A stretch of DNA of 9,937 nucleotides, from IMG/VR virus record IMGVR_UViG_2698536681_000002; one strand, written 5' to 3'. This stretch comes from a virus (taxonomy: Duplodnaviria; Heunggongvirae; Uroviricota; Caudoviricetes). Shown in pieces: positions 4,202 to 7,231 of the stretch. Both the position numbers and the translations under genes were made by a program. Numbering within the stretch: the stretch's first letter is position 1; each line of letters opens with the position of its first letter. Below the pieces are notes generated by a model. The model searched no databases. It was not told the origin of the DNA and saw nothing but the letters and a program-made list of their open reading frames with translations.

Positions 4202-4672
4202 CTACTTAATGCACTGAGTGCGGATATACTCCTGTGCCCCTTCCAGTTGCATCTGCATCGTCATCAGCCGCTCTCTGAGGGTGAAATAATCCCGTTCAGC
4301 GGTGTCTGCCAGTCGGGGGCTGGTTGCATTATCCACGCCGGAGGCGGTGGTGGCTTCACGCACTGACTGACAGACTGCTTTGATGTGCAACCGACGACGA
4401 CCAGCGGCAACATCAGCGCGCAGAGTTTCATTTTCAGCTTTCGCATCAGCTAACTCCTTCNNNNNNNNNNNNNNNNNNNNNNNNNNNNNNNNNNNNNNNN
4501 NNNNNNNNNNNNNNNNNNNNNNNNNNNNNNNNNNNNNNNNNNNNNNNNNNNNNNNNNNNNNNNNNNNNNNNNNNNNNNNNNNNNNNNNNNNNNNNNNNNN
4601 NNNNNNNNNNNNNNNNNNNNNNNNNNNNNNNNNNNNNNNNNNNNNNNNNNNNNNNNNNNNNNNNNNNNNNNN
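4202..4672 (-). CDS. Rz-like i-spanin; C-terminal 85 codons visible, N-terminus inside the N run (5' end estimated)
   Basis: Visible frame 4202..4459 translates KELADAKAENETLRADVAAGRRRLHIKAVCQSVREATTASGVDNATSPRLADTAERDYFTLRERLMTMQMQLEGAQEYIRTQCIK, near-identical to my recollection of the lambda Rz C-terminal half. The ORF-track start at 4390 is an internal TTG. The 4672 end is an estimate assuming about 155 aa and an ATGA overlap with the endolysin stop. Confidence 0.75.
   Translation of the reverse strand, partial: XXXXXXXXXXXXXXXXXXXXXXXXXXXXXXXXXXXXXXXXXXXXXXXXXXXXXXXXXXXXXXXXXXXXXXXKELADAKAENETLRADVAAGRRRLHIKAVCQSVREATTASGVDNATSPRLADTAERDYFTLRERLMTMQMQLEGAQEYIRTQCIK
4264..4446 (-). CDS. 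Rz1-like o-spanin lipoprotein, embedded in the +1 frame of Rz
   Basis: MRKLKMKLCALMLPLVVVGCTSKQSVSQCVKPPPPPAWIMQPAPDWQTPLNGIISPSESG has a signal peptide with lipobox (VVVGC) and a proline-rich mature part, near-identical to lambda Rz1 as I recall it. ATG at 4444-4446 lies wholly inside the Rz frame. Confidence 0.9.
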   Translation of the reverse strand: MRKLKMKLCALMLPLVVVGCTSKQSVSQCVKPPPPPAWIMQPAPDWQTPLNGIISPSESG

Positions 4673-4880
4673 NNNNNNNNNNNNNNNNNNNNNNNNNNNN
4701 NNNNNNNNNNNNNNNNNNNNNNNNNNNNNNNNNNNNNNNNNNNNNNNNNNNNNNNNNNNNNNNNNNNNNNNNNNNNNNNNNNNNNNNNNNNNNNNNNNNN
4801 NNNNNNNNNNNNNNNNNNNNNNNNNNNNNNNNNNNNNNNNNNNNNNNNNNNNNNNNNNNNNNNNNNNNNNNNNNNNNNNN
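4461..4880. other. N-masked run (420 nt) inside the lysis cassette
   Basis: Contiguous n characters. The flanking reading frames imply it hides the C-terminal part of the endolysin and the N-terminal part of Rz. Confidence 1.
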
Positions 4881-5166: not shown

Positions 5167-5381
5167 TATTCACCTCTCGCAGCCTTACGCTTGTCTTCTC
5201 TTATTTTGAAATACAGATTTGTCAGATAAGTCAGAAGCCCCAGAAGCAGACTTCCCAGCACACCAATCGCAGCCCACTGTGATGGACTGACCTGATCCAA
5301 CCACTGCAAAAACCAGTAGCCGGCACTGCCGGCGGAGGTGCCGTAGGCANNNNNNNNNNNNNNNNNNNNNNNNNNNNNNNN
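5166..5381 (-). CDS. Pinholin, phage 21 S-like class II holin; C-terminal 60 residues visible (5' end estimated)
   Basis: Visible frame 5166..5348 translates [60 protein letters not shown], near-identical to S21 as I recall it. Its TAA stop overlaps the endolysin ATG (TAATG). Absent from the ORF track because its start lies in the N run; the 5381 end assumes about 71 aa. Confidence 0.75.
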
Positions 5382-5744
5382 NNNNNNNNNNNNNNNNNNN
5401 NNNNNNNNNNNNNNNNNNNNNNNNNNNNNNNNNNNNNNNNNNNNNNNNNNNNNNNNNNNNNNNNNNNNNNNNNNNNNNNNNNNNNNNNNNNNNNNNNNNN
5501 NNNNNNNNNNNNNNNNNNNNNNNNNNNNNNNNNNNNNNNNNNNNNNNNNNNNNNNNNNNNNNNNNNNNNNNNNNNNNNNNNNNNNNNNNNNNNNNNNNNN
5601 NNNNNNNNNNNNNNNNNNNNNNNNNNNNNNNNNNNNNNNNNNNNNNNNNNNNNNNNNNNNNNNNNNNNNNNNNNNNNNNNNNNNNNNNNNNNNNNNNNNN
5701 NNNNNNNNNNNNNNNNNNNNNNNNNNNNNNNNNNNNNNNNNNNN
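5350..5744. other. N-masked run (395 nt) upstream of the holin
   Basis: Contiguous n characters. Only about 32 nt are needed for the holin N-terminus, leaving roughly 360 nt of unknown content. Confidence 1.
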
Positions 5745-6307: not shown

Positions 6308-6871
6308 TTAAAACCGCATCAACCGCTCCACCAGTTGCTCTTTACGGGCAACGATCCACCCGTGTTGCTCCAGATAAAATTTAAACCGTTCCAGAGTACA
6401 TACCATCGCATCGGCGGGTACCTTTTCCGTGAACTCAACCTGACCGTGTTTATCGAAGTGGCTCAGTAATGCGCATCCATCATTTTCGATAGATGTGTTT
6501 TGTGCCGCTGGTGGCTGTTTCTGGTTGAAATAACAGTCTTCCAGTTTTTCGAACACTTCCCACGCCTGATCGGTTTCGAGCATTTTGGCGTGACGGGCTG
6601 CGCCACGTTCTGTCCAGAGGATGAGGGAGCGAACGTTACGGGCAATTTTCACAGAAACTCTTAAAGAGTTTTCGTTCTTCAACTCTCGTAACGCATCACC
6701 TTCTATCAGGAAAAAATGTTTACCTTCTATAAACCGTTCTTTGTTTCGATTGAAATTGTTTGTCAAACGCTGGCGCTCTGTTCCGTACAAATCAGCCAGC
6801 AGCTCTGTTGTCATGACAGGAAGATGGTTATGCGTAAGTGACGGGAGTTTTTCAATAGACGTGCGATTCAT
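6308..6871 (-). CDS. ORF6N-domain protein (KilA-N / antirepressor-like DNA-binding domain family), about 187 aa; accessory gene
   Basis: Translation MNRTSIEKLPSLTHNHLPVMTTELLADLYGTERQRLTNNFNRNKERFIEGKHFFLIEGDALRELK...RSLILWTERGAARHAKMLETDQAWEVFEKLEDCYF matches my recollection of the ORF6N consensus (NF.NNK.RF.EGKH.F...G..L.......LWTERGA.RHAK.L.TD.AWEV...LED.YF). Preferred start is the ATG at 6869-6871 (AGGA 7 nt upstream), with an alternative ATG at 6877. The longer ORF-track start at 7069 would run through the promoter/terminator modules and is rejected. Confidence 0.75.
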   Translation of the reverse strand: MNRTSIEKLPSLTHNHLPVMTTELLADLYGTERQRLTNNFNRNKERFIEGKHFFLIEGDALRELKNENSLRVSVKIARNVRSLILWTERGAARHAKMLETDQAWEVFEKLEDCYFNQKQPPAAQNTSIENDGCALLSHFDKHGQVEFTEKVPADAMVCTLERFKFYLEQHGWIVARKEQLVERLMRF

Positions 6872-7014
6872 AGACATGTCCTTTCGAATATTTTGATTTA
6901 CCCCTTTTGAGAGGGTGACCGGGCGCTCAAAACCGTCGAAAGTCGGCGGGCGTATTTCCATTGCTGGTATTGTATTAGCCGCACACCCGGTCATAAACCA
7001 AGAATTCTGGACAC

Positions 7015-7042: not shown

Positions 7043-7077
7043 ATACCGCTTTCGAGGTGTTTTGAGCACCGCGGGGA

Positions 7078-7106: not shown

Positions 7107-7231
7107 CACCGTCAGGTTCCAATCATCGGGTGGTGAGACGCACAGGGTTGGAACTACCGGGAAACCGACCGGCGAGCTTTTCAGCTCCCCCATGCGCCCC
7201 ACCATAATTCAGATGTGCGCGTGCATACGAC

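Follow-up and report, generated by a model that had tools for sequence, protein, structure and literature searches.

An ORF6N-domain gene of the AnrP family behind a predicted antisense RNA switch of the sRNA-Xcc1 class

What is a gene for an ORF6N-domain protein doing just behind the antiterminator gene Q of a lambdoid prophage? The gene in question lies at positions 6871-6308, on the minus strand, of a 9,937-nucleotide stretch of tailed-phage DNA (Caudoviricetes; IMG/VR record IMGVR_UViG_2698536681_000002), the whole of which we call the window. An initial annotation, made from the letters alone, had recognized the gene and placed it among the morons, as late-operon cargo of undefined role. 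Our answer is a different one: the gene encodes an antirepressor-type protein of the AnrP family, named for its homologue in the prophage Gifsy-1, and its translation is gated by antisense RNA switches in its own leader, in the style of the immI region of phage P1. We put the probability of this reading at about 0.75. By sequence comparison the locus is an antisense-gated antirepressor of known design, and its novelty appears to lie in the proximal gate, an RNA of the small RNA (sRNA) class sRNA-Xcc1. That RNA, taken as a c4-class gate with an unannotated decoy RNA of its own, is the sole part that a specialist might find new.

The product of the gene matches the Pfam ORF6N domain (PF10543) over residues 13-97 and profile positions 5-86 of 86 (E 8.8e-21; 74.4 bits, the gathering cut-off being 27.8), and the frame looks translated, with a Shine-Dalgarno motif spaced 7 nucleotides from the ATG at 6871. 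That ATG is kept in the orthologue of Escherichia coli EC12, where the alternative ATG at 6877 is absent, so the gene coordinates are right. PHROG 2379, annotated 'anti-repressor', covers the whole protein (E 4e-85). BLASTP aligns it with Gifsy-1 AnrP (STM2616/SL2578) at 49% identity over residues 3-184 (E 6e-58); both proteins have 187 amino acids, both genes follow Q, and the homology takes in the C-terminal part. The ORF6N assignment thus holds up, as does the surmise of an antirepressor- or regulator-like protein, which PHROG 2379 and AnrP both bear out. The view that the role at such a site is undefined does not: AnrP has already been defined by experiment in Gifsy-1, where its expression raises antQ-operon transcripts and induces the prophage (PMC4825925). 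The homology to AnrP points to a module of lysis-lysogeny control in place of a moron with a host phenotype.

An AlphaFold2 model built from 33 homologues gives a confident N-domain (residues 17-114; predicted local distance difference test, pLDDT, 80-91), in which an extended helical part carries on past the ORF6N match to about residue 114. A disordered linker follows (115-130, pLDDT below 50) and then a small beta-beta-alpha-alpha C-domain of modest confidence (133-186, pLDDT about 65). Among the 33 homologues, which are 64-94% identical, 57 residues are invariant. Measured against AnrP, the N-domain is about 60% identical and the C-domain about 30%, so the latter diverges faster; in relatives from Shiga toxin (Stx) phages the alignment is confined to residues 1-124. 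This pattern would fit a specificity domain. The protein might of course be a sequence-specific DNA-binding regulator, whether an activator, a repressor or a KilA-like toxic protein, that acts on promoters and binds no repressor. We regard this as unlikely. The PHROG families that cover its full length are annotated anti-repressor, it is the N-domain that is conserved and the C-domain that moves fast, as for a domain tracking a partner, and the RNA gate described below is common to Bro-N, P22_AR_N, Rha and ANT proteins, whose joint denominator is antirepressor function.

The evidence for control of this antirepressor-type protein comes from the leader. The seemingly empty 480 nucleotides between Q and the gene are a dense RNA control region, with four Rfam matches above the gathering score, all on the gene's strand: c4-a1b1, isrK, C4 and sRNA-Xcc1 (Table 1). 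The initial annotation had expected separate regulation, and the gene does have predicted promoters and leader RNA switches of its own. They fall into two modules. The one next to the gene (module 2, 7106-6872) consists of a promoter, a terminated RNA of roughly 55 nucleotides bearing boxes a1 and b1, and the sRNA-Xcc1-class RNA, whose match spans positions 1-87 of the 87 in the model. Segments a' and b' of this RNA have perfect 9-nucleotide and 7-nucleotide complements upstream, in the short RNA, and 6/7-nucleotide complements over the Shine-Dalgarno sequence of the gene.

Table 1 Features of the window in the region of the ORF6N gene, in order of transcription
Feature	Positions	Strand	Basis
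Q antiterminator gene	7759-7352	(-)	Pfam PF06530, E 2.7e-52
Sigma-70-like promoter TTGACC-18-TATATT, PisrK equivalent, predicted start about 7311	7347-7318	(-)	promoter scan
c4-a1b1 element, target-mimic boxes for C4; b1 UUGGAAC at 7286-7280	7324-7272	(-)	RF03163, 50.1 bits (gathering 46.7)
IsrK-type short RNA with terminator (stem 7256-7240 and U-run)	7311-7235	(-)	RF01394, 77.5 bits (gathering 50)
C4 antisense RNA; b' GUUCCAA at 7154-7148	7209-7126	(-)	RF01695, 71 bits (gathering 45)
orf45-like open reading frame, 76 amino acids	7205-6975	(-)	begins within C4; length not conserved
Second sigma-70-like promoter TTGACA-17-TACATT	7106-7078	(-)	promoter scan; homologous TTGACA...TATATT in TL-2011c and Nil2
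Predicted short decoy RNA of module 2	7070-7015	(-)	box complementarity, comparison of loci
a1 box GCUCAAAAC, start of predicted transcript	7067-7059	(-)	complement of a'
b1 box UCGAAAG, just 3' of a1	7055-7049	(-)	complement of b'
Hairpin CCACA...UGUGG and U7, predicted end of decoy RNA	7042-7015	(-)	compensatory changes in related loci
RNA of the sRNA-Xcc1 family, with a closing stem, two hairpins and an ACCC tail at the 3' end	6992-6909	(-)	RF02221, 77.4 bits (gathering 53)
b' CUUUCGA, loop of Xcc1 hairpin 2	6942-6936	(-)	complement of b1 and b2
a' GUUUUGAGC, adjoining Xcc1 junction	6933-6925	(-)	complement of a1 and a2
a2 box AUCAAAAU, 3' of Xcc1 RNA	6897-6890	(-)	complement of a'
b2 box UCGAAAG, overlapping Shine-Dalgarno AAGGA at 6883-6879	6887-6881	(-)	complement of b'
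AnrP-family gene, ORF6N-domain protein, 187 amino acids	6871-6308	(-)	Pfam, PHROG and AnrP homology
Intrinsic terminator 3' of the gene (GC-rich stem of 8 bp, U-run)	6232-6203 (stem 6232-6211)	(-)	terminator scan
tRNA array Met-CAT, Arg-TCT, Thr-TGT, Gly-TCC	6118-5808	(-)	directly after ORF6N terminator

The antisense segment of the Xcc1 RNA is predicted to form a duplex of -30.7 kcal/mol with the short RNA, which none of 500 shuffles equalled, and one of -17.7 kcal/mol with the start region of the ORF6N gene, which 7 of 500 equalled. C4 and IsrK, the partners in the module further upstream, pair at -30.4 kcal/mol (1 of 500 shuffles equal). Three crossed pairings were tried and dropped, the duplex being no better than shuffles in each: C4 on the ORF6N start region, Xcc1 on IsrK, and C4 on the short RNA of module 2. 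On these energies the two switches are therefore orthogonal, and the Xcc1 RNA alone addresses the ORF6N start region.

We infer every functional step within the window, as follows. Read-through transcripts would carry the Xcc1 RNA, which may be released as a stable RNA of about 85 nucleotides, as in Xanthomonas. The Xcc1 RNA would pair with a2 and b2 and block ribosome binding, leaving the antirepressor off in the lysogen. The short a1/b1 RNA would bind the Xcc1 antisense segment more strongly and titrate the Xcc1 RNA, as IsrK does C4, and translation would come on. The protein would then inactivate a prophage repressor, and early and Q transcription and induction would start, as they do with AnrP in Gifsy-1. 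The repressor in question may be that of another prophage, because in related chromosomes this one is flanked by insertion sequences (IS). Most Xcc1 loci have an ACCC or CACC tail at the 3' side of the closing stem; this tail and the stable 88-nucleotide RNA of Xanthomonas are indirect hints that the antisense RNA is processed.

The short RNA, which we call the decoy, matches no Rfam family at E <= 0.1. Its element is kept upstream in about 89% of 88 Xcc1 loci and has a set layout: a1 in the loop of a small hairpin, b1, then a further hairpin whose loop is of the CCCGNNAG type, followed by a U-run. In the Xcc1 system it seems to fill the place of IsrK. Alternative folds are hinted at by the decoy hairpin, whose 5' arm, CACACCCG (7041-7034), is complementary to that of the closing stem in the Xcc1 RNA, CGGGUGUG (6989-6982). 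Our terminator scan overlooked this hairpin, the loop of which has 11 nucleotides; the initial annotation had seen it. Both of the hairpins which that annotation placed on either side of the gene exist, a strong one at 6232-6211 and a weak one at 7042-7015, and only the purpose given to the upstream one has to go: in place of insulating the gene from the late promoter PR', it would be the terminator of a short decoy RNA inside the gene's own leader.

The reading frame of the ORF6N gene happens to be open upstream right through the Xcc1 RNA (7069-6872, minus strand). We considered an in-frame extension to the GTG at 7069, which would give 253 amino acids, and rejected it: it overlaps the Xcc1 RNA and has no Shine-Dalgarno sequence, and both EC12 and the spacing of b2, Shine-Dalgarno sequence and ATG favour the start at 6871. 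Database homologues of 195-230 amino acids probably carry false N-terminal extensions of this kind. With a leader so dense in RNA, annotation pipelines therefore mis-call extended ORF6N proteins and overlook the switch.

If the boxes matter, they should change together, and they do. A first alignment of seven loci has b1, b' and b2 changing as triples (UCGAAAG, CAAGUAG, UUAGCA, CUCAGUGAG and others). Written as b1/b'/b2, the window has UCGAAAG/CUUUCGA/UCGAAAG, TL-2011c and Nil2 have CAAGUAG/CUACUUG/CAAGUAG, Symbiopectobacterium has UUAGCA/UGCUAA/UUAGC, and the viral locus L089 has CUCAGUG/CUCACUGAG/UCAGUGAG; in L089 the a boxes covary too. A scan of viral contigs with the unvarying core of the first Xcc1 hairpin as bait, the boxes being left free, then gave 134 instances and 88 non-redundant sequences; all 17 loci that were spot-checked exceed the Rfam gathering score for sRNA-Xcc1. 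The test applied to the 88 was a perfect complement of at least 7 nucleotides to the hairpin-2 loop segment, each locus being compared with itself and with the others. The downstream leader holds such a complement to b' in 70% of pairings within a locus and 5% across loci, the upstream region in 89% and 9%. There are about 50 distinct b' sequences among the 88 loci, and in most of them the 3' end of b2 lies 9-11 nucleotides before the start codon, i.e. over the Shine-Dalgarno sequence.

A formal count of pairs says the same, made on 70 sequences that MAFFT had aligned without any tuning to the pairing: 80.5% of cells are paired as against 69.4% in shuffled sets, none of 500 of which reach the real value, and sliding the partners gives 31-58%. 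The b':b2 helix is 81% paired, with changes on both sides in five of its six pairs, and the closing stem and both hairpins of the Xcc1 RNA covary as well. Downstream, 76 of the 82 loci with a recognisable open reading frame (ORF) have an antirepressor-type N-terminal domain: ORF6N in 22, Bro-N in 20, KilA-N in 19, P22_AR_N in 10, Rha in four and ANT in one.

These figures bear on what sRNA-Xcc1 is. The literature has it as a stable RNA of about 88 nucleotides under HrpG/HrpX control with many predicted targets, and the RNA in the window could accordingly be an sRNA in its own right that acts in trans on host targets and sits before ORF6N by accident. We find this most improbable. Its variable loop changes in step with the next gene's Shine-Dalgarno region and with the upstream box, in about 50 versions; one functional class accounts for 76 of the 82 downstream genes; and the Xanthomonas copy, too, stands directly upstream of a gene, symE. 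We think it likely that the whole sRNA-Xcc1 family is a second class of the P1 c4 type: a programmable, cis-encoded gate over the ribosome-binding site of the next gene, with its own decoy RNA. The payload of such gates would, with similar likelihood, nearly always be an antirepressor in phages and symE in the integrons of Xanthomonas.

A few observations on these loci deserve a place here. At some, the Xcc1 RNA gates small proteins that have no Pfam match and are not of antirepressor type (L149/L172, L126/L163, L116 and L155), and b' is still matched at the Shine-Dalgarno sequence (e.g. CCUAGGA). Together with Xanthomonas symE, these payloads suggest that the gate is a portable cassette. One viral contig has, at L109:2202-2349, three matches to the CRISPR-DR4 repeat, with an Xcc1-gated ant gene some 1 kb away; these may be a phage-borne mini-array. 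On another, a tandem isrK-C4/Xcc1 antirepressor region has an antitoxin RNA of the hok/sok type nearby (Rfam sok, 108 bits; L139:3958-4128), and in EC12 hokD is found a few kb from the RNA/ORF6N module.

What, then, of the other three RNA elements? Module 1 (7347-7116) has a promoter, a terminated IsrK/a1b1 RNA and a C4 RNA, the same as in Gifsy-1. The predicted start of the first promoter coincides with the first base of the Rfam isrK model, and the C4 element folds with a z of -4.5. In Gifsy-1, transcription from PisrK passes the IsrK terminator into orf45-anrP, and the long RNA is translationally silent; the short IsrK opens the orf45 ribosome-binding site in trans, and anrP is translated by coupling (PMC4825925). 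The pairing of IsrK with its target was defined by mutations G28/G31 with C162/C159 (PMC4825925), positions that fall in the window within the boxes UUGGAAC and GUUCCAA. The AUGs of the orf45-like ORF, at 7205 and 7193, are +107 and +119 from the IsrK start, as published for Gifsy-1.

The connection to the payload is another matter. The orf45-like ORF stops 101 nucleotides before the ATG of ORF6N, and translational coupling of the Gifsy-1 type therefore cannot work here; we rejected it for the window. The distance is larger still, 213-255 nucleotides, in other composite loci. With coupling excluded, the gate that operates has to be the proximal one, that of Xcc1. Of the boxes of the C4 module the 7-nucleotide b box alone is evident, and the b2 copy for C4, UUGGAAC at 7122-7116, is no longer beside any ribosome-binding site. 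C4 and Xcc1 are 133 nucleotides apart in the window. The payload gene of module 1 seems to have been deleted, and the window looks like a tandem minus its first gene. With that first ant gene lost and the gap so short, the orf45-like ORF extends to 76 amino acids; elsewhere it has 27-45, and in composite loci its stop lies 115-255 nucleotides before the end of the extracted leader. The seam is at the second promoter: likeness to loci with C4 only (L105) stops there and likeness to loci with Xcc1 only (TL-2011c) starts, with a recombination junction right at the -35. The suspicion of horizontal acquisition is right in so far as the region is mosaic and recombinogenic.

A deleted payload raises the question of decay. 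The prophage could be a defective relic in which module 1 has no payload and the remaining module and gene drift without function. The first ant gene is missing by comparison with the tandems of Nil2, TL-2011c, L139 and L142, the orf45-like ORF is overextended, and related chromosomes have IS elements next to the DnaB side or interrupting the terminase. In the chromosomes with the identical gene (L226-L230) the prophage is bordered by IS, with transposase genes beside the gene for a DnaB-like protein and, in L230, an IS in place of the terminase; in at least some hosts it looks like a defective remnant. Drift of the gene and its gate is nevertheless quite unlikely: the ORF is intact, and the 57 invariant residues speak for themselves; the boxes of module 2 are all perfectly complementary; and the composite architecture is repeated in diverged loci, EC12 (89% DNA identity) and L061-L064.

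As a gene, ORF6N is ordinary; the enterobacteria have prophage antirepressor-type genes of this kind in thousands of copies. Thousands of assemblies contain the very same protein, on chromosomes 4.8-5.0 Mb in size, and the cluster to which it belongs at 99% bears the name Shigella sonnei; homologues at 64-94% identity come from E. coli, Salmonella, Citrobacter and E. albertii. Similar DNA is present in 1,190 of 5,426 complete E. coli genomes, the best match being EC12 (89%), which has the gene in the same position after Q with the same four RNA elements. To survey the leader we took 80 viral contigs with an AnrP-family protein (48-100% identity) and searched them by BLAST with the elements of the window. 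At 72 of the 80, isrK/a1b1 and/or C4 stands just upstream of the gene: isrK/a1b1 with C4 at 47, all three elements including Xcc1 at 12, isrK/a1b1 only (by BLAST) at 10 and C4 only at three. Xcc1 is alone at one locus, and seven loci, several of them truncated, have no leader element.

The gene upstream of the module is Q, of family PF06530 in 33 loci, DUF1133/Q-like in 18 and PF06323 in three, and the gap between Q and module is constant at 20-28 nucleotides. A few loci have an integrase or another ant gene there instead, and the module also turns up at positions that are not late: in the nin region (Nil2), in the early region (PA8, TL-2011c) and beside integrases.

The genes around it in the window are all on one strand. 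Upstream are genes for a DnaB-like helicase, an 85-amino-acid ORF, RusA and Q, whose stop codon lies 5 nucleotides ahead of the -35 of the first module promoter; downstream are four tRNAs, a P21-type holin, lysozyme, a lysis protein, HNH, the small and large terminase and the portal. The gene was correctly placed between Q and the tRNA array and lysis cassette. Two runs of N (4461-4880 and 5350-5744) hide the lysozyme gene for the most part, together with the holin gene's 5' part and the region upstream of it; an unmasked relative (L226) has in that interval an ordinary 98-amino-acid ORF, two further terminator-like hairpins and a P21-type holin. There is a promoter-like site at 6157-6128 ahead of the tRNA array, and the tRNA listed as Met-CAT may presumably be of the ileX/ileZ type. 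The 3' untranslated region of ORF6N (6307-6200) is structured (fold z = -2.1) and closed by the strong terminator; it could be an unrelated sRNA derived from a 3' untranslated region.

This interval between Q and lysis is where morons such as stx sit, and it is here that the moron has to be weighed: cargo expressed from PR' under Q, insulated by terminators, with a host or superinfection phenotype and no part in the phage's own switch. There are several terminators between Q and the holin, and Q-modified polymerase would read through the gene, which has promoters and a terminator of its own and is slightly low in guanine and cytosine (GC). The AT-richness noted at the outset is half right. The gene has 46.3% GC, below the 52.5% of the window, but the supposed contrast with its neighbours disappears at Q, with 46.6%; because Q has the same GC content, the figure is no sign of separate acquisition. 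The GC-rich flanks are structured RNA, the leader at 52.7% and the tRNAs at 56.3%. Cargo is very unlikely in our judgement: the homologue AnrP induces Gifsy-1 and raises transcription of the antQ operon, the leader is given over to a translational switch and has promoters of its own, the module is also found where nothing is late, and Q matches the gene in GC.

IsrK/a1b1, C4 and sRNA-Xcc1 take up what was called a late promoter region, and no PR' or qut was identified between Q and the holin, an interval that is partly masked by N. Judged by the unmasked relative, several terminators separate the gene from the holin; late transcripts must therefore begin upstream of them and get past by antitermination. 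PisrK may or may not be the Q-dependent late promoter; no other PR' was found. The constant spacing after three different Q families, together with the occurrence of the isrK-type module away from Q, argues against a Q-specific qut site. If late transcription did start at PisrK, IsrK would be the counterpart of lambda 6S RNA, and ORF6N would lie within the late transcript.

Several points weigh against a gated antirepressor. The antirepressor role of AnrP itself was deduced from induction and antQ up-regulation, not from repressor binding (PMC4825925). The C-terminal residues, about 70 of which the initial annotation could not assign, are hardly better placed now: the last 60 or so (about 130-187) have no assignable fold by Pfam, PDB profile or Foldseek. 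The Pfam scan found no ORF6C (E <= 1) or other domain in this part; a profile of 33 sequences matched nothing in the PDB at E <= 1; Foldseek returned no PDB relative; and beyond PHROG 2379 the C-terminal domain meets nothing but the tail of PHROG 995 and PHROGs 25059, 22471 and 340, which are uncharacterised. ORF6C is a frequent partner of ORF6N, not an obligatory one. The promoters of both modules and the terminator at 7042-7015 are consensus or comparative predictions, and that hairpin is weak in isolation. The a':a2 helix is weaker than b':b2, being 68% paired with changes that are mostly one-sided. Module 1, its coupling lost, may lack any direct effect on the ORF6N gene. And related chromosomes have the prophage flanked or cut by IS; the cognate repressor may be gone. 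Direct support from the sequences extends to the gene, its domain, the AnrP homology, the RNA family matches, the complementarities, their covariation across many loci, the orthogonality of the switches and the class of payload.

Should the reading be true, two orthogonal gates stacked before one antirepressor would allow two independent RNA inputs and would permit heteroimmunity-like cross-talk between co-resident prophages. The variable box acts like an address label, and its 50 or so versions could set immunity specificity among such prophages, Stx phages included, in which antirepressors bear on induction and on the release of toxin. The orphan family sRNA-Xcc1, for its part, gains a concrete, testable mechanism, with a bearing on recent predictions of host and plant targets.

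How does the window compare with systems already known? The closest is isrK-orf45-anrP of Gifsy-1 (Hershko-Shalev et al. 2016), which shares with it the protein family, the position after Q and the pair of a1b1/IsrK and C4 (STnc1160). The order in Gifsy-1 is Q (STM2617), a1b1/isrK, C4, STM2616 (187 amino acids), isrJ, tRNA-Arg and onward to the holin, and in both a terminator and one or more tRNA genes follow the AnrP-family gene. The differences are as instructive. Between C4 and the gene the window has an extra module of roughly 200 nucleotides, with a promoter, an a1/b1 RNA and sRNA-Xcc1, so that C4 is 254 nucleotides from the start codon and not 54; orf45 abuts anrP in Gifsy-1 but not ORF6N in the window, where coupling is lost; Q belongs to PF06530 in the window and to PF06323 in Gifsy-1; IsrJ, which comes after anrP in Gifsy-1, has no Rfam match downstream of the gene in the window; and Gifsy-1 has a single tRNA-Arg in place of the array of four. 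Stx phages have yet another set, Ile/Arg/Arg tRNAs before stx.

Some of those Stx phages carry tandems of the two gates. Nil2/VT2-Sa has isrK-C4-antA and then Xcc1-antB; TL-2011c has isrK-C4-Rha and then Xcc1-ORF6N, and L139 and L142 are similar. The window lacks the first ant gene. Its Xcc1 leader is 87-90% identical in DNA to theirs, but the C-terminal domain of the protein is unlike, and the tandems lie in the nin or early region and not after Q. The sar RNA of P22 offers a looser parallel: it is a small antisense RNA that blocks translation of the antirepressor at the start region, as proposed here, but it is made from the opposite strand to that of ant, as a true cis-antisense RNA, whereas the regulator in the window is upstream on the same strand and would pair through short boxes.

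For the design itself the model is P1. Citron and Schuster are said to have laid out, in 1990 and 1992, the a and b boxes of P1 C4, with a1b1 upstream and a2b2 at the ribosome-binding site, and Hartmann et al. reportedly described in 1995 the processing of P1 C4 RNA by RNase P. The immI region of P1 and P7 (c4-icd-ant) has the same layout as the window: a1b1, a structured antisense RNA that derives from the ant operon's leader, and a2b2 at the ribosome-binding region. The c4 RNA of P1 blocks translation of ant at its ribosome-binding site (PMC12197685, PMC8546580). The window has a bona fide member of the C4 family and a second RNA, Xcc1, of the same topology, a closing stem with two hairpins; in its Xcc1 module a' and b' are complementary to a2/b2 and to a1/b1 alike, which is the two-box arrangement of P1. 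The proximal antisense RNA is of a different Rfam family from C4, and Rfam keeps sRNA-Xcc1 outside the c4 clan. Unlike P1/P7, the context is a lambdoid prophage; no icd-like gene intervenes between the Xcc1 RNA and ORF6N; and the payload is an ORF6N protein, not Ant1/Ant2, with no Bro-N, ANT or P22_AR domain.

That leaves sRNA-Xcc1 as others have seen it: a trans-acting, virulence-linked sRNA under HrpG/HrpX control, with unknown or host targets. Known as an integron sRNA of Xanthomonas campestris, it is in Xanthomonas a stable species of about 88 nucleotides found in integron cassettes, directly upstream of symE; Xylella has several copies, with predicted host and plant targets; and one passing mention puts it upstream of an ORF6N gene in APSE phages. 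In the library that we searched we found no link of sRNA-Xcc1 to c4, none to a1b1/a2b2 boxes and none to the control of antirepressors. Yet Xanthomonas symE and the ORF6N gene of the window have this much in common, that sRNA-Xcc1 stands upstream of both, and where the literature has an RNA acting in trans, the window and the 88 phage loci point to a cis-encoded, c4-like gate of the antirepressor gene next door.

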